A stretch of DNA of 64,000 nt, from the IMG/VR virus record IMGVR_UViG_3300026116_000008; one strand, given 5' to 3'. The notes under the pieces were generated by a model. The model saw only the letters and a list, made by a program, of their open reading frames with translations, had not been told where the DNA came from and made no database searches. The stretch comes from an uncultured virus (IMG/VR IMGVR_UViG_3300026116_000008) (taxonomy: Duplodnaviria; Heunggongvirae; Uroviricota; Caudoviricetes). The translations under genes and the position numbers were made by a program. Within the stretch, counting starts at the first letter, position 1; each line of letters starts with the position of its first letter. Shown here piece by piece: positions 39,470 to 61,916 of this stretch.

Positions 39470-41776
39470 TCAGCCCGGCCCTCCGACGGGGCCCGGCAGG
39501 CGTTGGCCGGGTTGCGGGGGCTTGCGCTGGTTTCCAACGACGTCGACGCCCATGGCTGGGGCGTTGTTCATCGGTGATGCTTGGTTGCCTTGCGCCTGTC
39601 TTGCGTCGCGATCCATTGCACCGGACGGAGGGCCGGGGGGGTTTCCGTCCATTCCGCCCGGTGCAGGGGGTTGGGGTGAGCCGCCCCCCTCCTCCGGCAT
39701 CGACGCCCTCGACGCCAGAAAGCCGGTGGTGAGTTCTTTGGTGATGCCCTGAACACCGAGCTCGACACCCTTCTGGATGCCTTTGTCGACCTGCTCGCTG
39801 ATGGCCTTGTTCTGCTGCTCTTCCTGCTGCTTGGCCTGTTTCTTGAGAAGCTCTGCTTCCGACGGAACGACCTTGTCGCTGGACAGGCCGATCGTGTCGG
39901 CAACCGAGCGCAGCACCGAGCCGCGGCCGGCGAGACCGACGATCGACATGTCGACCGGGTTGTTGGTGTGTTGCAGGAACTCCAGCTGGCGCTGGCGCTG
40001 CGTCTCGCGCTGCACCGCGACCGTGGTGCCCTGCACGTAAAACTTCTCTTCGCCCGTGAGCATCCCGGTCGTGTCGGTGAGCATCACGAGGTCGCCAAGC
40101 TGCTGCAGGGCCACTTCGAAGATGTCGCGGTCGATGTTGGCGGCGACGGTCTGGAGGATTTTGGACGCGTTGCCCATGAGCATCGCGAGGCCCGACGCGG
40201 TGCGGCCGGCGCCGCCCGACGCGCTGCCGCCGACATACTTCGGGATCGCCGAGATGTCGTCGGAGAACTCCACCAGCGCTTTATAGACGGCGAGCAGTTC
40301 CTGCGCGTTCGACTGCGGCTGGAAGAACTCCACCGGCGCCTTGGAGTTGGTGCCGACCGGGTCGTTGGCGGCGTGCCAGCGCTTCCACGGGAAGAGCTCG
40401 TCGACGTTGTCTTCCGGGCGTACGCGGTCGGTGTTGACCACCACTTGCGGACCGGACGCGATCGCCATGTTGTTGAGCAGCGACCGCAAGGTCGCGTTGG
40501 CCGCGTCCTGCAGGTCCGCCATCAGGTCGGAGAGCGAGTTGCCGAGCGGCGTGCCGGGCACTTTCTCGAACGACGTGGTAAAATAGTTGTGCCGTGCACG
40601 GGGGGAAGGCGACAGGTTCGCCTTGATGACATGACGCCCGATCAAATAGACGTCGACCCGGTAGTCACGGAGCTCATCGTTGACCCCGGGCATACCATAG
40701 TCCTGCAAAATCCGGCCTTGAACGTTGCCGTGATATTCCAGCATGGTGATCAGGCCGGACCTGTTCCATGCTGGGTTCTCACGACTTTCAAGGGTCGCCC
40801 GCTCTGCGTCCGTGGTATCCCAATGCTCGTAGAGCCCGCCACGCCCGTACTCGTCGAGCACGGCCCGAACAGCGTTACGATCGTAGCCGGGCAGGTCGAG
40901 CAGATCATTGATCTCGGCACGGGTCAGGCGCGACTTCTCGATCACGTCGGCGTTGGCGATGTCGGCGACGCCCGGCGTCCACCAGATGTCGAACGGTGAC
41001 ACCCGGGTCCAGAACATCTTCGGTACCTGCTGGACCGTCGGCGGGCCGCCGCCGGGCGGCCACACGACTTCCGGGACGATCTTGACCGTCGGGCCCTTGA
41101 TGCAGGCGAACGGGAAGATCGGCAGGTCGACGATGAACTCCGCCAGCGCGTGGTAGAAGCCGCCTTCCCGGAGATACTCCTCGATCCGGTCTTCGGCGAC
41201 CTTGGCCTGCTTGGTGGCCTTTTTCTTCGCCGCTTCGGCCGCGCTCTCAAGCAGCGCCTCGCGCCGCTTGCGCGCACCGTCCGGGTCCGGCGGGACGCCG
41301 GCCTGCATGATCGTCTGCTCCTCGTGCTGGAGCAACGTACCGATCTTCTCCAGCACGTCCGGCGGAATATCCGGGTCGGCCGGCGGCTTCACCGCCCACG
41401 GCCGGTCCTGTCCCAAATAGATGTCGCGCAAAAGAGACGACGCCGCCCGGCATTTCTGGGCGGTGATGCGGGCGTAAATTTCCGACCCGCCGAATTTCTG
41501 CACCTCGCGCAGTTTGTCGGGCGAATACTGGCCGTTGAAGGTCCGCAGCGCCTCGATCAACCGGCCCGACCAGCCCGCCGCGGTGTTGCGGTGGTTGCGC
41601 ATGATCTCGAACTGGGTGCGGACGAAGCCGCCTAGCTCGTCCGGTGGCGACTGTGTATTTTGCGCGTAGGCAGCGGCTTGCGCCTGCTGCCGCTGTTGAA
41701 GCTGCGCTTCCAGCGCCGCCGGCGGGACGACCTGAAGAACACCTTGCTGGTTACCGAGAGGGATCGAAGCGGCCAT
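39470..41776 (-). CDS. Portal protein
   Basis: 768 aa; first gene of virion operon; RTASGLAMLM, GPQVVVN portal-like motifs. Confidence 0.85.
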   Translation of the reverse strand: MAASIPLGNQQGVLQVVPPAALEAQLQQRQQAQAAAYAQNTQSPPDELGGFVRTQFEIMRNHRNTAAGWSGRLIEALRTFNGQYSPDKLREVQKFGGSEIYARITAQKCRAASSLLRDIYLGQDRPWAVKPPADPDIPPDVLEKIGTLLQHEEQTIMQAGVPPDPDGARKRREALLESAAEAAKKKATKQAKVAEDRIEEYLREGGFYHALAEFIVDLPIFPFACIKGPTVKIVPEVVWPPGGGPPTVQQVPKMFWTRVSPFDIWWTPGVADIANADVIEKSRLTRAEINDLLDLPGYDRNAVRAVLDEYGRGGLYEHWDTTDAERATLESRENPAWNRSGLITMLEYHGNVQGRILQDYGMPGVNDELRDYRVDVYLIGRHVIKANLSPSPRARHNYFTTSFEKVPGTPLGNSLSDLMADLQDAANATLRSLLNNMAIASGPQVVVNTDRVRPEDNVDELFPWKRWHAANDPVGTNSKAPVEFFQPQSNAQELLAVYKALVEFSDDISAIPKYVGGSASGGAGRTASGLAMLMGNASKILQTVAANIDRDIFEVALQQLGDLVMLTDTTGMLTGEEKFYVQGTTVAVQRETQRQRQLEFLQHTNNPVDMSIVGLAGRGSVLRSVADTIGLSSDKVVPSEAELLKKQAKQQEEQQNKAISEQVDKGIQKGVELGVQGITKELTTGFLASRASMPEEGGGSPQPPAPGGMDGNPPGPPSGAMDRDARQAQGNQASPMNNAPAMGVDVVGNQRKPPQPGQRLPGPVGGPG

Positions 41777-42839: not shown

Positions 42840-44294
42840 ATGTCTGTTATCTACGACGCGCCGCCGACGCTGGGTCGCTTCATGCGGTCGGAAGCGTTCG
42901 GCCGGCTCGCGGCCGGGCCCGTGGGTAGCGGCAAGACCACCGCCTGCATCATGGAGTGCCTGCGCCGCGCGCTTGGACAGGCGAAGGCGCCGGATGGATA
43001 CCGGTACACCCGTTTCGCTTTTGTTCGTCAGACCCTTAAACAGCTGAAAGACACCGTCTTGAAAGACGTGCAGTCGTGGCTGGCCGGGTTAGGCGAATGG
43101 CGGGTCTCGGACAACACGTTTTATGTGGAGTTCGGTGACGTCAAGTCCGAGTGGGTGTTCATCCCGCTGGAAAATTCCGACGACCAAGCCCGGTTGCTAT
43201 CCATGCAGCTGACAGGGGCGTGGATGTCGGAATGCATCGAAATGGATTTCTCGGTGGTCGCGCCGCTCTCCGGTCGTATCGGGCGATATCCGAGCGGCAA
43301 CCGCGGCACGCCGACGTGGTTCGGCATCGTCGCCGACACCAACATGCCTGTCGAAATGAGCGACTGGTATAAGTTCATGACGGCGCCGCCGCCGGACTGG
43401 CAGGTCTTTATTCAGCCGTCGGGGCTCGCCGAGAACGCTGAAAACCTCAATTACCTTTTACAGACAGAAGAGACGCTGAAGCTGCCGATCAATCATCCGC
43501 GGCGGCTGGCGCAGGGGAGAAGATATTATGAGCGCTTCCTTGAGATGTACGGCAGCGATCACCCGTGGGTTAACCGCTACGTTTATGCGCAGTACGGCGA
43601 CGATCCCTCCGGTGAAGGCGTCTTCCGGGCGACCTTCAACACCAAATTCCATGTCGTGGAAAACACCCTCGTCATCCCCGGTTACCCTATCATCGTCGGA
43701 CAGGATTTCGGTCGTAACCCGTGGTCGCTCATCTGCCAAGTTGATCATATGGGACGACTTCTCGCACACGAGGAGGTCGCTGGAACTAACACCGGCCTAG
43801 AGAAGCACATCGTCCAGAGTTTGCGGCCGCGGCTCTTTCAGGAAAAATATCTCGGCGCCAAGATCATCGTCGTCGGCGATCCGAGCGGCGTCAATAAAGG
43901 ACAGGTCTCGGAGGAAAGCTGCTTCGACGCGCTGAAGCGGATGGGCTTCCCGGCGTTCGGCGCCCCGACCAACGACATCGACCCGCGGCTGCGCGCCGTC
44001 GAAGCGCTGCTGGCACGGCAGACCAACGGCGGTCCCTCGCTGCTGATCAACCGCGCCGGCTGTCCGTTCTTGGTCCGTGCCATGTCTGGAGGCTATCGAT
44101 ACAAACGCCACAAGGACGGCGCGCTGCGCGCGGTGCCCGAGAAGTTCGACAAGGAAGGTTTCTCGCACATCGCCGACTGTTTGCAGTACGTCGCGCTTGT
44201 GGTTCATGGTGGACTTGTGCATGAGTTTGCCCGGCGGATGCAGCCGCGGGCACGCCCCGTGAACCGGCGCATCACCGCTGCGGGGTGGACGTGA
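42840..44294 (+). CDS. terL: Terminase large subunit
   Basis: Walker A GPVGSGKT, Walker B-like AWMSE, nuclease GQDFG and SHIADCLQY. Confidence 0.92.
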   Translation: MSVIYDAPPTLGRFMRSEAFGRLAAGPVGSGKTTACIMECLRRALGQAKAPDGYRYTRFAFVRQTLKQLKDTVLKDVQSWLAGLGEWRVSDNTFYVEFGDVKSEWVFIPLENSDDQARLLSMQLTGAWMSECIEMDFSVVAPLSGRIGRYPSGNRGTPTWFGIVADTNMPVEMSDWYKFMTAPPPDWQVFIQPSGLAENAENLNYLLQTEETLKLPINHPRRLAQGRRYYERFLEMYGSDHPWVNRYVYAQYGDDPSGEGVFRATFNTKFHVVENTLVIPGYPIIVGQDFGRNPWSLICQVDHMGRLLAHEEVAGTNTGLEKHIVQSLRPRLFQEKYLGAKIIVVGDPSGVNKGQVSEESCFDALKRMGFPAFGAPTNDIDPRLRAVEALLARQTNGGPSLLINRAGCPFLVRAMSGGYRYKRHKDGALRAVPEKFDKEGFSHIADCLQYVALVVHGGLVHEFARRMQPRARPVNRRITAAGWT

Positions 44295-46319: not shown

Positions 46320-47637
46320 AGGTTGTATTGGTTCTTAAAGTGCTTCGCCGGTTCCTCGCAAGCACTAAAAAATTCAGCCAACAAAAATCGACCCGCGCGA
46401 GCGATGCCCGGCGGGTCGAGAAGTTGTCCACACCCAAGAGAGAAACGTTCGGAGGAACGTCGAGCCGGAACATATCGGGGTCACGGCACGCGCGCAAGTG
46501 GTGCATGGGATAATTTTCCGGGGGGATTTTGGAGGACCGGTGATCACGGAGGACCCGTGAAGGGGGTGGGGGTGTCTGAGGGGGGAGGGGAGTGTGTCAA
46601 TAAGTGAGGCACCTTTTGTGCTATGTATCACGAATTGTGAGGGTGCGGGGGTGGTCGGGTTGTGTGTTGCCAAAGTTGATAATGTCACGTTTCGTGATAC
46701 TTGGAATTTTGGGGTCGAGGTGTTTCACGGTCCTAGCAATATAGCGCGCGGGCCGGTGGGGCCTGTCCATGGTGGGGGTGGGGTAGTGCGATGGCCCTTT
46801 ATCAACAAATGAGACAGTCCAATTGCTCTTTGTTTTCAATCACTTAGCGAGTAGCAATAAAAGACACATAGCACGAAACTACACAAATGATACGTAAAGT
46901 GCGTTACCAAACATGCTAGCACCATTGGTCACGCACTTTATGAGACATCGCCTTGTCTGGTATCAACAAAAGACACATTTTGGCGCCGCTGCTAGTTTTT
47001 TTACAACTCTTTGGGCGATCTCCTAGAACTAGAGCAAACCATTGAAATCATTGAGCTTTTTGACTGCTAGTCTGTTAGTCGGCAAAAACGGCAGGTCACC
47101 GCTCCGGCAGAGAACAAGTTTCCGGAGGCGCTTCCGGAGCGTGTCTCAAAAATTGATCTGAGGAAGCGGTATCATATAACCTTATTATAACTATATGAAA
47201 TAATTGTCTTTTTTACTTTTTGACTAAAAAACAAATTGAAAAATACAAATTAGATCGTATGCGATCATTCTCCGGAAAGTTCTCCGGAAACTCTCCGGAA
47301 ACGCCGTTTTTGGAGGTGTCCACTGCCAGAAATCGCCGCTAACAGACTAACAGCCCCTTTTTGGACCTGCTTTTTACCAAATTTAGTTAATGATTTCATG
47401 GTGTTATCCTACAGACTATCAACAAATGTCGCCATATGCTGGGGAACTCTTAATGAAATCAATAAGTTAGACCCATAGCCAAAAAGTAACATTCCAAGCC
47501 GGCCAAAAGCGCTCTGTAACCCATTGATTTTATTGGTGTCTCAAATGCATGTTGACAAACGTGATATTAGACCGGTAAATCGCCTTCGGCGAATTTAAGA
47601 CAACGCCGACGACACACCCAATTGGAGCAACCAGAAA
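46320..47637. other. AT-rich non-coding control region (origin and/or genome terminus candidate)
   Basis: No credible ORF; inverted repeats, TCCGGA iterations, IHF-consensus sites, operators, between divergent transcription units. Confidence 0.6.
47552..47581 (+). promoter_or_regulatory. Early sigma70-like promoter
   Basis: TTGACA followed by GGTAAATC, similar to alphaproteobacterial GCTANAWC -10. Confidence 0.6.
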
Positions 47638-48921
47638 ATGGCTAGAACCCCTTCGATGACAACCGCGGAAGCCGAACAAGTCCTCGGCCCGCGCGGACAT
47701 CTCAACGTTAATTCGGACAACCGCGCAACCGTCCGAAAGTGGATTGTCGCGCAAGGCTTTCCTGCGCTCTTTGTCGGCGGCTTGTCCATGCGTGAATTGG
47801 CGCTGGCCTATAACCAAACCGACGGCGCGGGCATTGCCGCCCTACAGCGCAAGTTTCAGGAAACCGAAACTGACGACGAGGACAACGCAGACGACGACGC
47901 GCAGCAAGCCGCTGCCGCGGCTGTCGCGAAGATTGGACACGCGTCGCCTGCCGCTCCCGCGCAAAACGTTGGTCCGCACAACGCCGCGGCAATCCTGCAA
48001 GGCAACGACCCGATGGCGCTGCTGCGGGAAATCTTGCTTGGCGGTTACAAGCCGGGCCTAGACGAAAATCGCGTGCGGGAAATCGTTCAGGACACTCTTG
48101 CCGGCGTCGCGCCGCGCGTCGTTGAAATCCGCAACAACGACAAGCCGCCGGTCAAAATCGAAGGCATCATTCATCCTGAATTTGAGCGCTGTCTGAAATA
48201 TCTTTCGAACACTGGCCCTGACAACTATCGCGCCAATATCATGCTCGTCGGCCCTGCCGGCTGCGGCAAAACCTATCTCGCGAAGCAACTCGCCAAGGCT
48301 CTGAGTGTCGACCATACGATTGTTGGCGGTACCGCAGGCGCCAGCGAAGGCGACCTGATCGGCCGTCTTTTACCCGGTGAAGGCGGAAAGTTTGATTACG
48401 TGCCGTCCAAGGCTATCTCGCTTTACGAGCGCGGAAACGCGCTGATCTGCTTCGATGAAATAGACGGCTTTGACCCGAACATGCTCATGGTCGCGAATAT
48501 GCCGCTCGCAAATTCCTCTTGGTTCGTTCACTTGCGGCGTGACGAGCCTGAAGTGCACCGCGGTGACAACGTGTATTTCATGGCAACCGCCAACACGTAC
48601 GGCACGGGCGCAAATCCGATTTACGCCGGCCGCAATCCCATGGACGGCGCAACGCGCGACCGTTTTATCTTCATTACGGTCGACTATGACACCAAGCTTG
48701 AAGAGAGCATCGCCGCTGCCGGCGGACTGACAACTGCGGAGTGCGCGGGCCTTTGGGAAATGCGCAACCGTGCACGCGAAGCCGGCTTGCGCCGCGTCAT
48801 CTCAACTCGTGCGTTCCAGAAGGCTGCGGTTATGAAGACCGCAGGCGAAACGTGGAAGGAAATCCGCGGGCATCTTCTGGAGGACTGGACCAAGGATGAG
48901 CGCGCCAAGATCGGCGTTTAA
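47638..48921 (+). CDS. MoxR/CbbQ-like AAA+ ATPase
   Basis: Walker A GPAGCGKT, Walker B FDEID, TANT.G.G...Y.GRN..D.AT.DRF. Confidence 0.9.
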   Translation: MARTPSMTTAEAEQVLGPRGHLNVNSDNRATVRKWIVAQGFPALFVGGLSMRELALAYNQTDGAGIAALQRKFQETETDDEDNADDDAQQAAAAAVAKIGHASPAAPAQNVGPHNAAAILQGNDPMALLREILLGGYKPGLDENRVREIVQDTLAGVAPRVVEIRNNDKPPVKIEGIIHPEFERCLKYLSNTGPDNYRANIMLVGPAGCGKTYLAKQLAKALSVDHTIVGGTAGASEGDLIGRLLPGEGGKFDYVPSKAISLYERGNALICFDEIDGFDPNMLMVANMPLANSSWFVHLRRDEPEVHRGDNVYFMATANTYGTGANPIYAGRNPMDGATRDRFIFITVDYDTKLEESIAAAGGLTTAECAGLWEMRNRAREAGLRRVISTRAFQKAAVMKTAGETWKEIRGHLLEDWTKDERAKIGV

Positions 48922-48924
48922 AGA

Positions 48925-48978
48925 GGGCGAAACCGCGCCATGGCGCGGTCTAGCGGTCATGCCGCTACTGACGAGCCC
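48925..48978 (+). ncRNA. Hammerhead ribozyme, type II (HH1)
   Basis: GGGC-GAAA-[CCGCGCCATGGCGCGG]-TC^-TAGCGG-tcatg-CCGCTA-CTGACGA-GCCC; complete core, three stems; cleavage after 48950. Confidence 0.92.
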
Positions 48979-49010
48979 AAAGCTTTCGCAGCAACAATGG
49001 AGCAACACCC

Positions 49011-49220
49011 ATGCAAGCTAAACGCAAGACGCTAACGTCGGGTTGGTATGAGTTTGATCTAGCCAACGGCAAAACCGTTGGCGTGCGATGCCACGGTAAG
49101 GGCGAATGGAGCATTTATTTTCGGCAAGACGGCAAACCCGTTGAACCTACGCCCGAAGGCGGACAAGAGATTTTTTTCCACGGCTATAAAACTGCTGTGG
49201 CGTTTGCGCTTAACCACTAA
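49011..49220 (+). CDS. Small early protein
   Basis: AATGGAGCAA leader; 69 aa. Confidence 0.65.
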   Translation: MQAKRKTLTSGWYEFDLANGKTVGVRCHGKGEWSIYFRQDGKPVEPTPEGGQEIFFHGYKTAVAFALNH

Positions 49221-49238
49221 AAAATGGAGCAACACCCA

Positions 49239-50081
49239 ATGGCCACCCATCAACCGCTACAAGATGGACGATACGACAGCGTAACGGACTTCATTGCGGC
49301 CGTTAACCTTCGGTGCTTTGAGCCCAAGAACAGAGAGCATTTCGACGGCTTAATGACCGAAACGAGATACGGGAAAAAATGGTTTGGCGCGGACTGTGCC
49401 AATGGTCGCGACGTTGAACGCGTCATGAACAGCGGCTGGAAGGAAGGCCAAACCCGCATGGAAAAAATGCGGTCTAAAATCGGCAACGTTGAGCTTGTGC
49501 CGATTGATCGTCGTCGACGGCCTGTCAGAACCGACATGGGCGATATCGTCGACATGCCTAGCGTCTGGAGCGGCCGGCTTGATATCGCATGGAAGACCGC
49601 GAAGCGTCGCACGACGCAAGGCCCGCAGAAGATCGAACTATGCGCCAACATGCTTTGCAGCGGCGGCGAGGATGCTGACGTGCTTTTCTGGCGTGGTGCG
49701 GCTGCGGCAACACTGGCGGATATCCTTGAGCAAGCCGGCTACATGGTTCGGCTCGTGATCGCCTTCGGTGGCAAGGAATACACCAACGGCGACGTGTCAT
49801 GCCGGATCATCGTAAAAGACCATGGCATGCCGTTGGACGTCGCCACCACGAGCGCGGTGATCCTGCCCGGTTTCTTTCGCGCCCTAGGCCATGCTTGGAT
49901 CGTCAATCACTCCCGACAGCACATCGGCTATTTTGGCGGCATCACCGTTGAGCAAGGCAAGGTGGACGAAGGCGAGATTTTCCTTTCGCACGAAGTCCGC
50001 GACCAAGCGACCGCGGCTAAATTCGTCACGGCGCAAATCCAGAAACTCAACGATAGCATCATGGGAGGGGCCGCCGCCTGA
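49239..50081 (+). CDS. vWA-like partner of the AAA ATPase (putative)
   Basis: GGAG RBS before MATHQ; WRGAAA..LAD.LE..GY.V.L and FFR pattern; near AAA gene; no canonical MIDAS visible. Confidence 0.55.
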   Translation: MATHQPLQDGRYDSVTDFIAAVNLRCFEPKNREHFDGLMTETRYGKKWFGADCANGRDVERVMNSGWKEGQTRMEKMRSKIGNVELVPIDRRRRPVRTDMGDIVDMPSVWSGRLDIAWKTAKRRTTQGPQKIELCANMLCSGGEDADVLFWRGAAAATLADILEQAGYMVRLVIAFGGKEYTNGDVSCRIIVKDHGMPLDVATTSAVILPGFFRALGHAWIVNHSRQHIGYFGGITVEQGKVDEGEIFLSHEVRDQATAAKFVTAQIQKLNDSIMGGAAA

Positions 50082-50082
50082 A

Positions 50083-50143
50083 GCCCGAAAGGCCCGTCTT
50101 TAAAGACGGGCCTCTAGCGGTTACGCCGCTACTGACGATGGGC
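50083..50143 (+). ncRNA. Hammerhead ribozyme, type II (HH2)
   Basis: GCCC-GAAA-[GGCCCGTCTTTAAAGACGGGCC]-TC^-TAGCGG-ttacg-CCGCTA-CTGACGA-t-GGGC; cleavage after 50114. Confidence 0.9.
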
Positions 50144-50171
50144 CGAAACTATCGCAGCACCCAATGGAGCA

Positions 50172-50405
50172 ATGACCATGATCGTACAAAAATCCGTTAT
50201 GCAACTACTTGCGGCTATGTCACCGTCCGATCAAGCTTTAACGCGGGAATTAACCGACGCGGCGAGGGCCGGGCGCTTTGACCATGTTCAACTCGCAAGC
50301 CTGCAAGCGCGCAATCCGCACGTTGTTTTAACCTATATGATCGAACGTCCAACACTTGTCATGCGAGACGCACGGTTCGCTAGACATGGAAAGGCAAGGC
50401 CATAA
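50172..50405 (+). CDS. Small early protein
   Basis: AATGGAGCAA leader (start may be 50178). Confidence 0.55.
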   Translation: MTMIVQKSVMQLLAAMSPSDQALTRELTDAARAGRFDHVQLASLQARNPHVVLTYMIERPTLVMRDARFARHGKARP

Positions 50406-50455
50406 CAACAATCGACACCCGATAAAGACACCCAACAAAAACGGAGCAACGCATT

Positions 50456-50965
50456 ATGTCTAAGGTTTACCCAGGAACCATGACGCAAACCGCAGAAATC
50501 GCGGACCGGTTCAAGCCACATCCATTCATCAAGCTGCGCGCGGATCACGGCGACAAAATCGCCAGATGGGTTCTCGACCATGGCCAGCAATTCGAGATTG
50601 GCCCTGAGACCTATAAAGGACGGCGCGGCCGGCAAGGGCTATGCTTCATGAACGCCACGCATCTTGCGTGGGATAATCCCGAGTTGTTTTATGTGGAAGG
50701 CTACGTCTGTATCCATGGCATCTCGATCGAACATGCTTGGGTCTGCGACAAGGACCGAAACATATTCGACCCGACATTGCGCGTTGCGCCCGACAAGTCC
50801 AAGAACCTGCGCAACGACCCGACACGCATCACCGACTATTTCGGCGTGGTGTTTGGCCATGCCTACCTGCGGCGCGCGACACTGGCTAACGGCTACTATG
50901 GCCTGTTCGCCAACGCCAGCACGCGCGCGCTTGTCACCGGCCAAGTGAAGGATTGGCAGCCATGA
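50456..50965 (+). CDS. Transglutaminase-like fold hypothetical protein
   Basis: CFMNA...YVEGY...HAW....D.T (Cys-His-Asp pattern). Confidence 0.55.
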   Translation: MSKVYPGTMTQTAEIADRFKPHPFIKLRADHGDKIARWVLDHGQQFEIGPETYKGRRGRQGLCFMNATHLAWDNPELFYVEGYVCIHGISIEHAWVCDKDRNIFDPTLRVAPDKSKNLRNDPTRITDYFGVVFGHAYLRRATLANGYYGLFANASTRALVTGQVKDWQP

Positions 50966-51323
50966 CCCGCGGAACATTCGATTTCGGCAAGGGGCCGTTC
51001 GCTCGCTTCTGTGTGTTGGTATGCCTGTTCTACATCATATGGAAAGCACGGCGCGAACACTGTGATATCGAGGTACACATAACACCACGAGAGGCGCGTT
51101 AAGAGCCGCGCCCATAAGCGATAATCTCTCGGGCGCCTCAGTGGCGCCCGTTCGCTTTTAACGCATCAGCGGGCTTCTAATGGCTTCGAGATTTTGTAAC
51201 TTTGTTGCGCGAAGGTATTCAAGAACCAAAAACTTTTTACAACTCGCGTATACAAACCAATTGCTCTAATAGCACGTTATATGCTAGTTACGTTTCGTTA
51301 CACATCCAACGGAGCAACCAACC

Positions 51324-51521
51324 ATGAAACTATTCAAGCTCACATTCACACAGCGCGAGATAGCGCTGATCCGTACCGCACTGACGCTGCGGCGTGCGGA
51401 ACTTAGCGAGTTCATAAGAAATCGCGATGAGCTTAAATTATTATCGCCGGCCATGCAGGCGGCTTACGACGAAACCGACGCGCTGCTGAAAGGCAAGCTG
51501 GCGCCAAAGGAGACAGACTAA
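51324..51521 (+). CDS. Small helical early protein
   Basis: AACGGAGCAA leader. Confidence 0.6.
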   Translation: MKLFKLTFTQREIALIRTALTLRRAELSEFIRNRDELKLLSPAMQAAYDETDALLKGKLAPKETD

Positions 51522-51733
51522 TGGCGTCCGAACGCGTCAACACGATAGTCCTCACGGACCGGCAAGTGACGCTTGTCCGCGTCGGGCTGATCCTGCGATT
51601 GCAGCAACTCATGCAGCGTATCAACAACGGCGATACGGACTTGCAGATCATCTATGACGAAACCCGTGCAATGCTGCTCGCGGACGGACCGTTGTCCATC
51701 GACACCATTGCGCGCAACCGCAGGGGAAAGTGA
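51521..51733 (+). CDS. Small helical early protein, likely paralogue of 51324-51521
   Basis: LT.R...L.R..L.LR...YDET.A.L shared pattern. Confidence 0.6.
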   Translation: MASERVNTIVLTDRQVTLVRVGLILRLQQLMQRINNGDTDLQIIYDETRAMLLADGPLSIDTIARNRRGK

Positions 51734-51875
51734 TGCTCCAAATCCTCGCCTATTTCTCCGCGCTGACAACACTCGCAGCGTCAAGCCCGGCCCATGGCAG
51801 CACGTCCGCTTTCTGGATGGCTGCCGTGGCTTTTATCCTTTCGTTCGCACTCATGGTCACAGAGGATCAACGCCA

Positions 51876-52733
51876 ATGAACAACGCATTTCTCGTTCGCC
51901 TGTCCATGACGACATGGACCGCGCGCAAAATGGACAAGGGCGCGACGCGCCAAGCCAAAGACCATGCCGGCGCGACCGACAAGGCCGGCGTGAAGGTCTA
52001 TAAGACCGTGATCGCCGCGGAGGAACTGGACGCCATTCAGTCGATCTGCAACGCCGCACGGATCGAGCACCGCAAGCGCACCGTGCCATGGTCCTATGAC
52101 GGTCCGGGCGCGATCACCGCCGAAGGCTATCCCGCCTATAAGGCCGCAATGACCGGCTACGAGCGGGAGTTTAACCTTGCCGTCGCGCGCTTCAACGAAG
52201 TGTACGCCGCAGAGCGCGAGAAGGCCCGCGAGTATCTGGGCAATCTCTTTGATCCCGCGGACTATCCGGACAGCATGTCGCTCGGCTCGAAGTTCTCTTT
52301 TAGCGTGAGCGCTGAACCCATGCCGGAGGCAAATAATTTCAGGGTTAATCTCCCGCCGGAGATCGTCGCCGAGATCAAAAAAGACATTGTCTTGAATAAC
52401 CAGCAGGCGTTCGAGAACGCGAACAACGCTGCTTGGGCGCGCGTGATCGAGAAAGTGGAGAAACTCAAACTGGCCATGGCGAACTACAAGCCCGGCGAAC
52501 AGAAAGGTAAATTCCACGACACGGTCGTGTCTAATATCGTTGAGCTCGCAGAACTGATCCCGTCGATCAATATTTCCAACGACGAAGACTTGACGCGCAT
52601 GCAGCGCAAGTTACTTTCTCTCACGGCGTACACGGCGCAAGACCTGCGCGAAGACGAGAACCTGCGCGAGGAAGTGGCCAAGGCATGCGGCGCGATCCTT
52701 GCCGATATCACGGTTAAAGCGAGGGCAGCATAG
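51876..52733 (+). CDS. DUF3150-like phage protein
   Basis: L.M..WTARK.D, T.PW, F...DYP, IP..NI..D..L motifs. Confidence 0.6.
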   Translation: MNNAFLVRLSMTTWTARKMDKGATRQAKDHAGATDKAGVKVYKTVIAAEELDAIQSICNAARIEHRKRTVPWSYDGPGAITAEGYPAYKAAMTGYEREFNLAVARFNEVYAAEREKAREYLGNLFDPADYPDSMSLGSKFSFSVSAEPMPEANNFRVNLPPEIVAEIKKDIVLNNQQAFENANNAAWARVIEKVEKLKLAMANYKPGEQKGKFHDTVVSNIVELAELIPSINISNDEDLTRMQRKLLSLTAYTAQDLREDENLREEVAKACGAILADITVKARAA

Positions 52734-52798
52734 GAGGGGAACACATGACAACGTAACTCACGAATACCTAGTTGAACCGATAGTTATTCGTGTGTCTG

Positions 52799-52840
52799 AT
52801 GGAAGCCGAGGAGGGTAAAACCTCTTCGGCTTTTCCATTT
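52799..52840 (+). terminator. Intrinsic terminator-like hairpin
   Basis: GCCGAGGAGG-gtaaaa-CCTCTTCGGC-TTTT. Confidence 0.7.
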
Positions 52841-52867
52841 GACACTAGCACAAAACGTGCTTAGTAT
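52839..52867 (+). promoter_or_regulatory. sigma70 promoter with operator in the spacer
   Basis: TTGACA-N17-TAGTAT; TAGCAC-AAAAC-GTGCTT at 52846-52862. Confidence 0.8.
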
Positions 52868-52896
52868 GGTTGAACACACCTAAAAGAGAAACAACC

Positions 52897-55654
52897 ATGA
52901 CAAAAGCAATCATCGGCGTTGAGCAATTTCCGCGCGTGCAGTTCACAATCGAACTGGCGGAAGGTGAGACGATGCCTAGTCTGATTACGCTGCCGGACAC
53001 TTCGCTGATTGTTTACGCCGGCAAATACGCGTCGCCGGGCGAACGCTATATGTACAAACGCGTTCAATCGCACATGATTTTTAGCGGTCCGGTGCGCGAG
53101 TGGAAAGAACACATCGGCCTTGAAGGCTGAAGGTGGAGCAGCGATGACCGCAATCTATTATGGCGTATACCGCGTAATGCCGAACGGCAAGCACACGTAT
53201 GTGTCCCGTTCGGTCACAAACAACAAAAAACTCGCCGAAGCTATCGCGGACGATCTTTCGCACGGTATCGTCATCCTGCCTACGGGCGCCACGAAGCGTG
53301 TCACACCGCATCCGCACGTATGGTTGGACACATCTAAACGGAAAGGCGCATGAACCATGGCCCCACTGTCTCACGCGATCGACATCGTCAAGGCCGCTGG
53401 CTATAGCGTCTATATGCGCCGCGAAGATTGTACTTGGATGATCTATTCGGACGGCAAGAACATCGGCTATTTGCAGCGAAGTTGGCGCGGTGGCTATGAC
53501 ATTACGACCGTGCACAAACCGAACACGTCGAGCGGTACGAGCTTTAAAGTCCATGAGATGTTGGGCGAAAGCGAGCTTGCCGACAAACTGAAAGACGGAT
53601 TTATACTCGCGCCGCTTTGGGCGCGTGAAAATTCTTCCGTACGTAAATATCGCGATATTGAGGAGTACCTCAACGCGGATGATTTCAACCGTCAATACGT
53701 CAAGGTTTGAACCTGCTACAGAGCGCCCAGATGTACTACACCCTTGAAGGCAAGACGCCCGTGCCGTGCCATGACGTTGCCGCGTGGGCGCGTTGGTTCG
53801 AAGCCACCCGCAAAGGCGACGGGCGCCGTGTTGCTTACGGCAACGTCGGCCCCGGCGTGTCAGTCAGCACGGTTTTCCTTGGCCTCGACCATGCTTTCGG
53901 GAGCGGTCCGCCGCTGCTGTTCGAAACCATGATCTTCGCACCCGATGAAGTGTATTGCGAACGTTGCAGCACATGGGAGCAGGCCGAAGCGCAGCACAAA
54001 AAGGCATATGAGTTTGCCGCGCGTTCGTACGCTGCTGTCCCGGAGGCTTTTCGATGAAACGCAAAATCGCAACACCGGATCAAGCCCGCCAGATTTTGTT
54101 CCGTTGCGGCGCCGACACTGGCGAAGATTTCGCCGCCCTGCCGTCGCGCACTGTTCAGCAATTGCTCGAATGGGCGGACGTTTGTCGGTATCGCGCACCA
54201 AAGAACGCCAATGGTTCGCGGGGCCGTTATTTCTTTGCTTATCTACAACGTCTGGCTAACAGGCATTGACATGAAACACGGTCCTTACCCACGCCGCGGC
54301 ATCATCGAGAAGCGGGCCAAACCGCAGCCAACCGAAGAGAGCATGCCGAAACCAAAAAAGACGGCAGGTCCGCAGCATCTCTATTCGAAGCGATCGGTGC
54401 GCAAGGCGAAATCCCTTGTCACGCTGCCGTCGCTGCCATGGGGGAAGTCATGATGACACCGAAAGCTGTATTGGTCCGCAAGGCGCTTGAAGATTACGAT
54501 TACCGTGAAGCGCTACGGATCATAGACGCAGCGGTTAGCCTTTGCGTTTTAGCAGACACCGCACCAGACAACGCGATCAAAGCCGCCGAAGATTACGTGT
54601 CTGGAATGTCGCATACGACGCCCGAAGAACGAAAGTTTTTGGACGCCGTCATTGCATTGCTTCGTGTAGGGCGCTGACCATGCCGCTTTACACACATGAC
54701 TGCGACAAATGCCGCTTTCTGGGCATCGACGTCCGTCGACACGGTGAGCCGCAATGCAATGGCGTGGACATGTATGTCTGCGAAAGTGTTCTAGGGCGCC
54801 CTCTGTTGCTGCGCCGCTATTCGTCCGAAGGGCCGAACTACGGCTGTCTTGATGTCGAATATATCCATTACGACAACGAGCGTTATGGCCACATGATCCA
54901 GCATGCGAGAGAATTGAAATGGATTTCATGAGCCTGCGGGCGTTCGATTTTGCCACATACTCGATCCTCGCGGTCTGTGGCGTGTCTGTTATCGCAATGG
55001 TGCTGCTATGAGACAAATAGGTCTGGAGCAAGTGAAGTGTTTCGAGGCTGTCGATGGCTGGGGAACAATACTCAGCTATGACGCAATGCCGTCTCCCGTT
55101 CGCGAGCGATTGCGCAATTCACCGTTTAACCTGTGCGCGACTTGCGTGTGCGACGGCGCGTGGAAACGCAGCGACAGAAACTTACCGACACTTAACGCCT
55201 ACATGTCCACAATAGTGGACATGGAAAATCAAATTCGTTGTGAGGAGGTCTGAAATGGACATGGTCGATAAAGTACGTGAAGAACTTCGCGCGCGGCAAA
55301 TCAGACGCCACGCGTTCCTCGCCTGTTTCGTGTTCTGGGCGCTGGTGGCCGTCGTGGTGCGCGCCTATGTCGGATGACAGCAACGGCAAGGCGCCCGAGC
55401 CGAAAACAAGCGCGCACGAGAACCACAACGTCCTCGCGGACGAAATCGTCCGTACGATCACCATCGGCACCGCCAAGGGCGGCGGCAAGTGGCTGGACAT
55501 GCTGGTGCTGCTCGAAACAGTGGTGTTCGGCACTGTCGTGATCGTCCGCGAACTGCAAAAGACAAAAGACGGCGCCACGATCATCGACGCCGTCTGTGCA
55601 GGGGCCAAAAAACGACTTGCAAAATACGACAGGTCAAAGATTATCCGACCATAA
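52897..55654 (+). other. Cluster of about 10 small, tightly packed early hypothetical genes
   Basis: Consecutive coupled + strand ORFs (e.g. 53357-53710, 53707-54057, 54054-54269, 55008-55253); no recognisable families. Confidence 0.6.
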
Positions 55655-55701
55655 GAAGCGCTATGGGGGCCACTCTGCCGAACACAGAACCCCATGACTT
55701 A

Positions 55702-55762
55702 GACGGCGAGAGGTGCGTTCCGCACGGCCCATGAGGGCTCCCACTCTCGCCGTTTTATTTTT
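55702..55762 (+). terminator. Branched terminator-like structure
   Basis: ACGGCGAGAG...CTCTCGCCGT closing two small hairpins, followed by TTTATTTTT. Confidence 0.6.
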
Positions 55763-55772
55763 ATAGCACGTA

Positions 55773-55800
55773 TTGACACACGCACATTGTTTGCTATTCT
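55773..55800 (+). promoter_or_regulatory. sigma70 promoter with operator
   Basis: TTGACA-N16-TATTCT with TG extension; ACGCAC-ATTGT-TTGCTA at 55780-55796. Confidence 0.75.
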
Positions 55801-55824
55801 GAGGCGGCGCAATGGGAGCTACAC

Positions 55825-56115
55825 ATGCGAATTCACCCAATCGACAATCCGAAGTTCGACCCCGGAAACGTCTACGCGACGCCGGCTGTTGTCACGGCAC
55901 TGAGCGAGGACTACGCGCTCTCGTGCCTCACGCTGCACATCACTGGCCAGTGGGGCACGGTTGACGACCAAGACAAGGCCGCCAACGACCGTGCGCTCGT
56001 CAACGGTGGTCGCGTCCTCAGTGTCTACCCGCTGGAGAACGCGCCCGGTGATTTCTGGATCATCACCGAGGCGGATCGTTCGAGCACCACGATGCTCCTG
56101 CCATCTGAATACTGA
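55825..56115 (+). CDS. Conserved plasmid/phage small protein
   Basis: G....TP....H..G.WG....ND.A...G.R..S.Y...WIITEADRS.TT.LLP.EY pattern. Confidence 0.7.
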   Translation: MRIHPIDNPKFDPGNVYATPAVVTALSEDYALSCLTLHITGQWGTVDDQDKAANDRALVNGGRVLSVYPLENAPGDFWIITEADRSSTTMLLPSEY

Positions 56116-56206
56116 GAGGCTCCAAGACGTTTTCACGCCGGGCGGGGTGCAAACCTCTACCCGGCTTGAAGGCGTGCTAACACCCAAAATCAATGGAGCA
56201 AAAAAC

Positions 56207-59784: not shown

Positions 59785-60039
59785 ATGTACACGCAGTACA
59801 AAACCCCGAAGCAACTTGCGACTTTGAAGGCCCGCAGTCGCATCCTCTCCGAGGCGCATCGCAAGGGCTACGTGACAAACGAGAAGGCCAAACGGATCGG
59901 CAACTGGGAGCAGGCTTGGTACCACCTGTCTCAAATGGCCGAGGCCGGGCTTCTGAAGCAGGCAGGGTATAACCGATGGATTTGCGCGAAGCCCGGAAAG
60001 CGCTGGTACAAGCAAGCCCGGAAAGTGCTGGAAAACTAA
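59785..60039 (+). CDS. Small basic winged-helix-like protein
   Basis: AGGAG RBS; 84 aa. Confidence 0.55.
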   Translation: MYTQYKTPKQLATLKARSRILSEAHRKGYVTNEKAKRIGNWEQAWYHLSQMAEAGLLKQAGYNRWICAKPGKRWYKQARKVLEN

Positions 60040-61916
60040 AGCATATTCTGGTCGGCGATTTCGAGACCTACTACGACAAGGATTACTCCCTCCGGCGGCT
60101 GACCCCGCCGGAGTACATTTTAGACCCTCGTTACGAGACCATGTTGCTGGGTGTGCAAGACCTGACATGGGACGGGCCGAAGATTTTAGAGGCGCACGAG
60201 ATCGCGCCCTTCCTGAAAAACTACCCTGCCGAAGAGACCATGTTCATTTCGTTCAACGCGTTGTTTGACGCGGCGATCATGGCGTGGCGGTATCACTGGG
60301 TGCCTGCCCGCCTGCAGGACGCTCTGGGCATGGTGCGGGCGCTGCGGAATTATCCCCGCAATTCTCTCAAAGAGGTGATGAAACAGCTTTTCGGGCGTGA
60401 CACCAAGGGCGACACCATCCACAAGGTGATCGGCATGCGGCCGGCTGACGTGAAGCGCGCGGGCCTGTGGCCGGCTTACAAGACCTACGCCATGGGTGAC
60501 GTCCGCGACTGCATGCATATCTGGCTGAAGCTCTACCCGGAGTTTCCCCTCGAAGAACAGCTGGTGATGGACTTGGTGCTCAAGGCCGCGATCGACCCCC
60601 AGCTGCAGGGCGATAAAGACATGCTGGCGCAGCACCTGTTCGAGGTCCGCGCGCGCAAGGCCAAGCTGCTCGAAGAGTGCGGTGCCGACAAGGCCGCCCT
60701 GATGAGCACGGAGCTATTCAAGCAGTCGCTTGAGGCACTGGGCGTCGAAATAAAGACGAAGGTGTCTCCGACGGGGCGTGTCGTGCCGCAGTTCGCGAAG
60801 AGCGACCCGTTCATGGCGGAGCTTTTGGAGTACAGCGCGTCATATAACGACGACACAAACACCAAGGTGCAACTCCTCGCGGCCGCGCGTCTGTCCGAGA
60901 AGTCCACGATCGAGGAGACCCGCGCCGAACGGTTCCTGAAAATCTCCTCGTTGCAGTGGGAACGCGCCGGATACCTGCCGCAGATGTTTCCCATCCCGCT
61001 TCGCTACGGCGGCGCGCACACGCATCGGCTCTCTGGCGAATGGAAAATGAACTGCCAGAACCTGCCGCGGGACATTGAGAAGAGCAAACTGCGCTCCGCG
61101 CTGATCGCCCCGCCGGGGCATACGCTGATCACGGCAGACTTGGCGCAGATCGAGGCGCGCATCGTCGCGTGTCTCGCCGGGCAGACCAACCTCGTTGAGC
61201 AATTCGCCGCCGGCGAGGACGTCTATGCGTCGTTCGCGTCTTTATTGTTCGGCAAACCTGTCAACAAAAAAGACAATCCAAACGAGCGCTTCATCGGCAA
61301 GACTGCAATTCTCGGGCTTGGCTACGGCTGCGGCGACGAGCGGTTCTACACCATGGTGACCACCGACGCGCGCAAGTACCATATTCCGCTCGAAGGACTA
61401 TTCGACAGAGGCACTGCGACGATCACGGTTAATACATACCGCAACCTGTTCGCGCAGTACATCGCCGCGTCGTGGCGCAAGCTGGACAAGATGCTGCGGA
61501 TCATGGAGAGCCCGAGCAACAATCTCCTCGTTTGGGGCCCGGTAAAATTTACAAGTTCGAAGATTATTCTTCCGAACAAGATGACGTTGAGGTACACTTT
61601 GCCCGACGAACGCTTGTACGGTGCGAAGCTGCTTGAGAACATCACTCAGGCGCTGGCTCGTATTGTCGTGATGTCGGCCGCGGTGCGGCTCAGTCAGCGT
61701 TACTGGTTACGTTTCGTGCTGCAGACCCATGACGAACTGGGCTTCATCGTCCAGAACCATGAAGTCGCGAGCGCGGCACGGGCGATCGAACTGGAAATGA
61801 CCACGCCTCCGGATTGGATGCCCAATCTACCGCTGGCGGTCGAGGTCAAGGCGGGGGCAAATTATGGAAGCTGTATCGACGTCAAAAAATATCTCGCCGG
61901 AGCAGTTAATAACTGA
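59976..61916 (+). CDS. polA: Family A DNA polymerase with 3'-5' exonuclease
   Basis: DFETY (ExoI), FNALFD, RLSG...N.QNLPR, motif A DLAQIEARI, motif B RFIGKTAILGLGYG, motif C THDE. Confidence 0.92.
   Translation: MDLREARKALVQASPESAGKLKHILVGDFETYYDKDYSLRRLTPPEYILDPRYETMLLGVQDLTWDGPKILEAHEIAPFLKNYPAEETMFISFNALFDAAIMAWRYHWVPARLQDALGMVRALRNYPRNSLKEVMKQLFGRDTKGDTIHKVIGMRPADVKRAGLWPAYKTYAMGDVRDCMHIWLKLYPEFPLEEQLVMDLVLKAAIDPQLQGDKDMLAQHLFEVRARKAKLLEECGADKAALMSTELFKQSLEALGVEIKTKVSPTGRVVPQFAKSDPFMAELLEYSASYNDDTNTKVQLLAAARLSEKSTIEETRAERFLKISSLQWERAGYLPQMFPIPLRYGGAHTHRLSGEWKMNCQNLPRDIEKSKLRSALIAPPGHTLITADLAQIEARIVACLAGQTNLVEQFAAGEDVYASFASLLFGKPVNKKDNPNERFIGKTAILGLGYGCGDERFYTMVTTDARKYHIPLEGLFDRGTATITVNTYRNLFAQYIAASWRKLDKMLRIMESPSNNLLVWGPVKFTSSKIILPNKMTLRYTLPDERLYGAKLLENITQALARIVVMSAAVRLSQRYWLRFVLQTHDELGFIVQNHEVASAARAIELEMTTPPDWMPNLPLAVEVKAGANYGSCIDVKKYLAGAVNN

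Follow-up and report, generated by a model that had tools for sequence, protein, structure and literature searches.

We examined a 64,000-nucleotide stretch of DNA from an uncultured virus (IMG/VR record IMGVR_UViG_3300026116_000008; the whole stretch is called the window below) and found two type II hammerhead ribozymes, HH1 and HH2, on its plus strand. Our best reading, to which we give a probability of about 0.65, is that both are self-cleaving elements within one plus-strand phage mRNA and that they carry out protein-free intercistronic processing. An initial annotation of this DNA had proposed such processing; the motif and its placement are documented here, and transcription, cleavage, and the effects on stability and translation are inferred. 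Taken singly, HH1 is very probably a working ribozyme, and HH2 is likely to be one. The two elements, with the methods that recovered them, are as follows.

48924-48978, plus strand: HH1, type II hammerhead (Rfam RF02276, covariance model R1, minimum free energy [MFE] fold, descriptor scan)
50082-50143, plus strand: HH2, divergent type II hammerhead (model R1, MFE fold, descriptor scan)

Both ribozymes have the type II permutation, with stems I and III loop-capped and stem II open. Both carry the core C3 U4 G5 A6 N7 G8 A9 together with G12 A13 A14, the A15.1-U16.1 pair closing stem III, the G10.1-C11.1 pair closing stem II, and a base other than G at position 17. In HH1, A48924 is followed by stem II (GGGC at 48925-48928, paired with GCCC at 48975-48978), GAA (48929-48931), stem III (48932-48949, a hairpin closed by the A15.1-U16.1 pair), the triplet GUC, stem I (UAGCGG-U-CAU-G-CCGCUA, 48951-48967), and the core CUGACGA (48968-48974). 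The same order holds in HH2, with A50082, stem II (GCCC at 50083-50086, paired with GGGC at 50140-50143), GAA (50087-50089), a 10-bp stem III (50090-50113) that is unrelated to that of HH1 and likewise closed by A15.1-U16.1, the triplet CUC, stem I (50115-50131), and the core CUGACGA (50132-50138), after which an extra U stands at 50139 between A9 and G10.1. C17 lies at 48950 in HH1 and at 50114 in HH2, and the cuts are predicted from the sequence to fall between 48950 and 48951 and between 50114 and 50115. The initial annotation had read these elements correctly: the full core (CUGACGA, GAAA, and GUC or CUC) is present in both, stem I (UAGCGG/CCGCUA) is identical save for three loop bases, the stem III sequences differ yet pair perfectly, stem II is strand-swapped (GGGC/GCCC against GCCC/GGGC), and the extra U after A9 of HH2 is there.

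The MFE and centroid structures (RNAfold) of both elements are the three-way junction, with z scores of -1.85 for HH1 and -5.22 for HH2. We scanned the window with a descriptor covering all three hammerhead topologies on both strands and allowing one inserted base after A9, and only the HH1 and HH2 sites matched; 300 first-order Markov simulations of the 64-kb window gave 19 matches in total, 5 of them type II. The covariance model R1, built from 77 hammerheads of other viral contigs with no window sequences and run with filters off, scored HH1 at 69.2 bits (E 5e-17) and HH2 at 47.8 bits (E 4e-11), against 13.2 bits for the third-best match in the window, with the reservation that its training set was fished with the stem I and core pattern of the window, so that a match is built in at about 24 of its 65 positions. 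HH1 and HH2 have a 24-base identical stretch in common; they are paralogues and not independent occurrences, and the two matches amount to one origin plus divergence. Within orf69, a gene lying between the two ribozymes, a hairpin at 49064-49081 resembles the stem I of related hammerheads and gave a partial R1 match on the minus strand (11.8 bits, E 0.44), which is probably due to chance.

When the loop and N7 are allowed to vary, the stem I and core string turns up in 45 stretches of IMG/VR contigs; the exact pattern was found in only 2 of the species-representative genomes, both of them metagenome-assembled. In the loci fetched with this string the descriptor identified 91 type II hammerheads, a count that includes near-duplicate contigs, a contig near-identical to the window, and one doubtful match with a long stem I that was later dropped. 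Many contigs hold 2 to 5 copies, and the descriptor gives 6 in locus L035. An alignment of 77 distinct hammerhead sequences from 40 loci (A1) shows variation on both strands at 12 of its 16 stem pairs; the 99.8% pairing in A1 follows from the rules of the descriptor and carries no evidential weight. The base directly 5' of stem II, a position outside both the fishing pattern and the descriptor, is A in all 77 sequences. Loop 1, where the bases in question are likewise fixed by neither, begins with U in 77 of 77 (also in copies with other stem I sequences), ends with G in 75, and has a pyrimidine as its penultimate base in 59. HH1 and HH2 both carry the A before stem II, the loop-1 U, and the loop-1 pyrimidine (A48924, U48957, and U48960 in HH1; A50082, U50121, and C50124 in HH2). 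Natural hammerheads are described as having a UNmYN motif in loop 1, the 5' U of which pairs with the 3' A of loop 2 (PMC2632901). The conserved A, U, and pyrimidine positions match this contact and suggest that it forms here as well, the A 5' of stem II being the counterpart of the loop-2 A because the type II permutation puts the base there. Stem II is more alike within contigs than between them (identity, 0.91 versus 0.74). The idea that stem I, core, and leader are copied within genomes as one cassette found no support, since only stem II is clearly more alike within contigs.

A search with the Rfam hammerhead models, which the initial annotation had suggested as a check, came out positive for HH1 and negative for HH2. 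HH1 scored 38.7 bits with RF02276 against a gathering score of 37, and this was the sole Rfam family above threshold across the 64 kb; HH2 was absent from the report even with permissive filters over 48700-50400 at E≤10, where only HH1 was listed. At the gathering score, RF02276 found none of 46 subfamily copies in 20 loci (L005 to L050), and at E≤10 it reported 8 of 29 copies in 9 loci, with 28.2 to 31.2 bits. Because RF02276 scores the whole subfamily below threshold, the pass of HH1 is marginal and the miss of HH2 is uninformative.

The ribozymes lie in the intercistronic gaps of a series of plus-strand genes, listed here in order.

47638-48921, plus strand: AAA_5 (MoxR/CobS-like) ATPase gene (Pfam AAA_5, 6.8e-15; PHROG 249, 1.5e-44)
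49011-49220, plus strand: orf69, first gene of the block between the ribozymes
49224-50081, plus strand: DUF7192 gene (Pfam DUF7192, 4.4e-24)
50172-50405, plus strand: orf77, first gene past HH2
50456-50965, plus strand: orf169, next gene past orf77, with no Pfam or PHROG family match
51130-51150, plus strand: terminator-like hairpin, 8 G-C pairs followed by a T-rich tail (consensus scan only)

HH1 stands between the ATPase gene and orf69, and HH2 between the DUF7192 gene and orf77. The TAA stop of the ATPase gene ends at 48921, 3 nt short of stem II of HH1, and the TGA stop of the DUF7192 gene ends at 50081, 1 nt short of stem II of HH2, in agreement with the spacing of 1 to 3 nt first noted; the next starts lie 32 and 28 nt past the ribozymes. 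By sequence, folds, and R1, each element is a type II hammerhead lying in a gap between cistrons and on the coding strand, as first described. They are 1.16 kb apart, in gaps of 89 and 90 to 96 nt between plus-strand open reading frames (ORFs). One label did not survive: the gene at 49224-50081 had been called vWA-like, and Pfam gives only DUF7192, with no vWA match to the protein at E≤5 and nothing below E 0.9 in a sequence search of the PDB. Neither orf69 nor orf77 matches a Pfam or PHROG family. The hairpin at 51130-51150 is a possible end of the transcription unit.

The same placement recurs in other contigs. We compiled 87 hammerheads from the fetched loci and the window, keeping near-duplicates and leaving out the loci identical to the window as well as L040, which overlaps. 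Of the 87, 80 had an ORF of 50 codons or more upstream, and its stop ended between -1 and +6 nt from stem II in 64 of these 80, often with the stop codon overlapping the invariant A before stem II. For 86 of the 87 there was a downstream ORF, the start of which lay 14 to 41 nt past the ribozyme in 77 cases. Most of the neighbouring ORFs are small and lack a known function; among the 80 that were scanned, 4 hit anti-restriction PHROGs, and ParB-like and clamp-loader-like ones also occur. An anti-restriction setting of this kind is on record in the Agrobacterium tumefaciens prophage, where the ardA gene is flanked by hammerheads (PMC3088659).

In the preferred reading, a single plus-strand mRNA would run through the AAA ATPase gene, HH1, orf69 and the DUF7192 gene, HH2, and orf77 and orf169. 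Synthesis of each ribozyme would begin with the 5' strand of stem II and proceed through stem III, the cleavage site, stem I, and the core to the 3' strand of stem II, and cleavage after C17 (48950/51 and 50114/15) would begin once stem II closes. Because stems I and III are hairpins, the 4-bp stem II would be the sole link between the products, which should part easily. The upstream message would then terminate in the stable hairpin of stem III (10 bp in HH2), bearing a 2',3'-cyclic phosphate, and the downstream message would carry a 5'-OH on the stem I hairpin, followed by the core, a short leader, its own GGAG, and the start codon. Such mRNA ends should slow 3' exonucleases and 5'-monophosphate-dependent decay. 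In this way the operon could be split into three messages from one promoter with no host nuclease, and their stability and translation could be uncoupled. Messenger RNA processing was proposed for clustered phage hammerheads by Perreault et al. in 2011 (PMC3088659).

Proteins flanking the ribozymes served as queries for relatives. The DUF7192 protein has relatives at 3 loci in viral_contigs and 3 in metagenome_contigs, and the ATPase query returned a near-identical contig only. At locus L050, where the DUF7192 protein is 59% identical and the ATPase C terminus 82%, a type II hammerhead (R1, 54.9 bits) lies between the ATPase stop and the DUF7192 start. All three of its stems differ from those of HH1, its triplet is AUA, and orf69 is missing; just past the DUF7192 gene, at the place of HH2, there is an intrinsic terminator (L050:1085-1125). 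A strain recovered from runs X2 and X3 is about 97% identical to the window in the flanking coding DNA and has another hammerhead sequence in place of HH1, with at least 10 substitutions and 5 indels (6 letters) among the differences listed, concentrated in 48925-48985; the loose end of X2 reads GAAAC, a new stem III, GUC, and a new stem I. Over 49467-50382 the X3 contig has 23 differences, none of which falls in 50070-50263, so HH2 and its leader are unchanged. Where a hammerhead is present at the ATPase/DUF7192 junction, therefore, its fold is kept and its sequence turns over. Locus L002 has a non-hammerhead hairpin after the ATPase gene and a terminator past the DUF7192 gene (L002:3885-3925), the two genes abut in L001, and a plain 10-bp G+C-rich hairpin occupies the place of HH2 in L051 (L051:656-679). 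The junctions thus tend to hold some structured element, of which the hammerhead is one interchangeable option, and plain hairpins and terminators at the same junctions fit an analogy with hairpin or RNase III processing sites. The nearest record, the 29-kb fragment G001, contains no hammerhead by Rfam or R1. Transfer RNA genes lie near two of the loci, three of them in L007 (1114-1359, minus strand) and one in L001 (447-520, minus strand).

These comparisons bear on a reading in which the hammerheads cleave with no regulatory benefit, as cassettes spread by recombination and tolerated in intergenic gaps. The occurrence of the stem I and core string in 45 contig stretches, the variety of genes flanking the subfamily, its patchiness in close relatives (one hammerhead in L050, none in L001 or L002), and the exchange of HH1 for another hammerhead between strains about 97% identical in flanking genes would all be expected of such cassettes. 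Yet the placement is regular, in the order stop, ribozyme, ribosome-binding site, and start, the orientation is always that of the flanking genes, and a hammerhead has been kept at the ATPase/DUF7192 junction despite complete sequence turnover, which suggests selection for function there. We therefore regard mere tolerance as improbable.

The paired arrangement could also be taken to mean that the ribozymes excise the 1.16-kb segment 48951-50114, which would then be ligated into a circular RNA, or whose flanks would be spliced together. The 5'-OH and 2',3'-cyclic phosphate ends that cleavage leaves can serve RtcB-type ligases or the reverse hammerhead reaction as substrates, and in other contigs, where copies share stem II (0.91 versus 0.74), the ends of an excised segment could rebuild a hammerhead. 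Perreault et al. raised this possibility, and their search for spliced or circular RNAs was negative (data not shown in that paper; PMC3088659). In the window, however, stem II is strand-swapped: GCCC of the HH2 5' strand cannot pair with GCCC of the HH1 3' strand, nor GGGC with GGGC, so no hammerhead can re-form from the excised segment or from the flanks. This makes excision hardly credible here.

Past both ribozymes, ahead of the next start, the initial annotation had pointed out two shared sequences, and both are indeed found there: TCGCAGCA at 48986 and 50152, and AATGGAGCAA at 48996 and 50163. TCGCAGCA is not above chance in the window (3 matches versus 3.7 expected). AATGGAGCAA, with at most one mismatch, has 9 window matches versus 2.7 expected, 8 of them within the plus-strand block 47621-56201; it contains the GGAG Shine-Dalgarno sequence and recurs before the starts of this block. 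The leader features are as follows.

48986-48991, plus strand: UCGCAG anti-core, complementary to the core CUG(A)CGA, pairing with the core in the MFE structure of the 3' product
48996-49005, plus strand: AATGGAGCAA translation-initiation motif, GGAG at 48999-49002, 8 nt before ATG 49011
50152-50157, plus strand: UCGCAG anti-core, forming with its neighbours a 9-bp helix with CUG(A)CGAUGG
50163-50172, plus strand: AATGGAGCAA translation-initiation motif, GGAG at 50166-50169, likely start ATG 50178

The longest-ORF starts ATG 49224 and ATG 50172 fall within GGAG or 2 nt past it. The true start of the DUF7192 gene is probably ATG 49239, 9 nt past GGAG at 49226-49229, and that of orf77 is likely ATG 50178, 8 to 9 nt past GGAG.

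In a subset of the subfamily, an anti-core directly after stem II matches N7, with GUCAG where N7 is C and CAUCAG or AUCAG where N7 is U (for example, in L008, L015, L022, L023, L025, L035, and L044). Pairing between core and tail reached -6 kcal/mol or lower in 13 of 80 copies, compared with 3.6% when tails were swapped; AUCAG in L034, at -4.2 kcal/mol, falls outside these 13. Across the subfamily, core/tail complementarity was barely above that of shuffles (-3.1 versus -2.7 kcal/mol). The anti-core could serve as a post-cleavage lock or an inhibitor. All five copies with N7 = G (core CUGAGGA; four in L012:1501-2528 and one in L006:962-1016) have an ATG 2 to 3 nt past stem II and no other Shine-Dalgarno sequence, and GAGGAG (GAGGA in L006) is formed by the core together with the base that opens stem II. 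In these copies the catalytic core may double as the ribosome-binding site of the next gene.

Several observations weigh against the processing reading, beyond the way in which the sequences behind R1 and A1 were gathered. We saw no pseudoknot between loop I and the 3' tail in HH1 or HH2, looking by eye for a complement of at least 4 nt in the tail next to stem II (loop I has 3 to 5 nt). The close relatives L001 and L002 have no hammerhead, and R1 matched nothing in the first 50 kb of Rhizobium phage RHph_TM3_14A, the nearest phage in culture; hammerheads are thus dispensable for this gene set. The remaining points concern HH2. In addition to its absence from the Rfam report, HH2 departs from the subfamily in the extra U after A9, in a G-C pair at 15.2-16.2 (seen in 1 of 77 subfamily sequences), and in a C-G second pair of stem II (seen in none of 77). 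Moreover, when the HH2 precursor is extended by 40 nt of downstream leader, its MFE structure pairs the core with the UCGCAG region and displaces the active junction, and the same 9-bp helix appears in the MFE structure of the 3' product. Because of this pairing, HH2 may cleave poorly, or only co-transcriptionally.

Together with the CUC triplet, these features would suit a situation in which only HH1 is active and HH2 is a decayed paralogue that now acts as a stable intercistronic hairpin, either a 3'-end stabilizer or a pause site; the plain hairpin in L051 and the terminators in L050 and L002, all at the place of HH2, are in keeping with such a role. A dead copy, however, need not have altered stems II and III on both strands while keeping perfect pairing, as HH2 has, and in HH2 all the conserved core bases are intact, together with the pairs G10.1-C11.1 and A15.1-U16.1, the A ahead of stem II, and the U of loop 1. 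The X3 contig has zero differences within HH2, R1 gives it 47.8 bits, and an extra U after A9 is found as well in L006 and in the X3 strain variant of HH1 (a T inserted behind 48974). An extra core nucleotide was reportedly described in a viroid hammerhead by De la Pena and Flores in 2001; it is said to be an A between A9 and G10.1 of a type III viroid ribozyme, whereas the insertion in HH2 is a U in a type II phage ribozyme. On balance, decay of HH2 seems unlikely, and two active ribozymes remain the preferred reading.

A wider proposal, which we put forward only tentatively and think doubtful as a whole, is that these elements belong to a distinct pseudoknot-free subfamily of phage type II hammerheads, missed by Rfam thresholds, that acts as modular punctuation or as an insulator in the 5' untranslated region coupled to translation. 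It would be recognized by a stem II of 4 bp, a stem I of 6 bp with a U-N-N-Y-G cap, and the A that invariably precedes stem II. Under this proposal the ribozyme core would be tied to the downstream initiation region. In some members the anti-core (UCGCAG here, N'UCAG elsewhere) might lock the 3' product or make cleavage depend on co-transcriptional timing or ribosome binding, and where N7 is G the core itself might serve as the Shine-Dalgarno sequence. The units would be swapped by recombination at fixed gene junctions.

The window as a whole is phage DNA by its gene content (Pfam and PHROG matches), with a mean GC content of 0.61. A muramidase gene is recognizable among its genes, and other landmarks are listed here.

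941-3892: primase-helicase gene
39470-41776, minus strand: SU10-type portal gene
42840-44294: large terminase gene
About 46700 to 47500-47600: low-GC (0.40-0.47) noncoding region, 5' of the plus-strand block
59976-61916: family A DNA polymerase gene

The large terminase (TerL) places Rhizobium phages of about 61 kb closest among cultured relatives, with 50% identity. The genome is apparently of the lytic type and about 60 kb or more. Its DNA was found in rhizosphere and soil metagenome runs, and the runs listed for 47600-51200 included none of RNA. A DNA search of 47600-51000 against cultured phages gave no match, and HH1 searched against cultured phages at E≤10 gave none except one at chance level. 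The plus-strand block bearing the ribozymes is the first after the low-GC region and heads toward the DNA polymerase gene; that the operon is early, as the initial annotation had it, is plausible from this layout. The low-GC region is presumed to be the control region of the block; a sigma-70 scan of 46700-47600 listed no plus-strand site, so that a sigma-70 promoter for the block is not supported. Within this noncoding region, where the GC content is 0.40, three tandem copies of a CTCCGGAAA-like unit lie at 47270-47305, and a related palindrome lies at 47121-47138; the tandem units and the palindrome may be operator or iteron sites. Elsewhere, a very large ORF (5921-10918, minus strand; 1,665 amino acids) has a weak match to a PHROG of unknown function.

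The literature has described type II hammerheads, their abundance in phages and prophages, and the way they cluster around genes since 2011 (PMC3088659), and a 2019 review describes the function of bacterial and phage hammerheads as open (PMC6765202). Beyond the 2011 paper, this review, and a 2021 method paper, we found no later functional work on phage hammerheads in a search that left subscription journals outside its range. What is added here is a pseudoknot-free subfamily that Rfam underscores, an extra U after A9 that recurs, the exchange of one hammerhead for another at a fixed junction, and a possible anti-core; these are modest variants and not a new class. The locus leaves the general picture unchanged, yet it gives a clean test case, in which two ribozymes share stem I but not stems II and III, one being canonical and the other having a core insertion and a strong competing helix. 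The variants that relatives hold at these junctions (hammerhead, hairpin, terminator, or nothing) allow one to ask whether self-cleavage does more than a hairpin or a terminator. Further, because RF02276 scores the subfamily below threshold, Rfam-based phage annotation will miss most of its ribozymes (87 copies in the fetched loci).

Among known systems, HH1 and HH2 resemble RF02276 (clan CL00010) in catalytic core, circular permutation, and occurrence in bacterial and phage DNA. The published RF02276 consensus combines a short stem II with a pseudoknot between loop I and the 3' tail, which is associated with fast cleavage (PMC3088659); here, stem II has 4 bp, loop I is only U-N-N-Y-G, and no pseudoknot was seen. 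Most members of the type II consensus have the pseudoknot and many hammerheads are described as lacking it (PMC3088659), so that its lack does not exclude type II membership. The invariant A before stem II and the loop-I U suggest a loop-loop contact in its stead.

In Desulfovibrio vulgaris, three type II hammerheads, also near phage-like genes, cleave in vivo, as captured by cyPhyRNA-seq through their 2',3'-cyclic phosphate and 5'-OH ends (PMC8782182, 2021). That is another organism, and the 3' fragment there, with 39 nt (PMC8782182), is longer than the 28 nt that lie here between the cut and the end of stem II. Clustered hammerheads are reported from prophages, namely the A. tumefaciens ardA triple, Azorhizobium caulinodans, and Clostridium scindens; they were shown to cleave while being transcribed in vitro and, for the A. 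tumefaciens ardA arrangement, in E. coli as well (PMC3088659). Like the pair in the window, these are several ribozymes within about 2 kb, on the gene strand, bracketing single genes or short blocks; they differ in having been shown to cleave, the window pair being known from its sequence. The bracketed block differs as well, consisting here of orf69 and the DUF7192 gene behind an AAA_5 ATPase gene, compared with the ardA-type prophage arrangements.

The early genes of phage T7 offer a further parallel: intercistronic RNase III sites cut their polycistronic transcript into individual mRNAs and leave 3' hairpins. RNase III is a host enzyme that produces 5'-phosphate and 3'-OH ends, whereas a hammerhead needs no enzyme and produces 5'-OH and 2',3'-cyclic phosphate ends.

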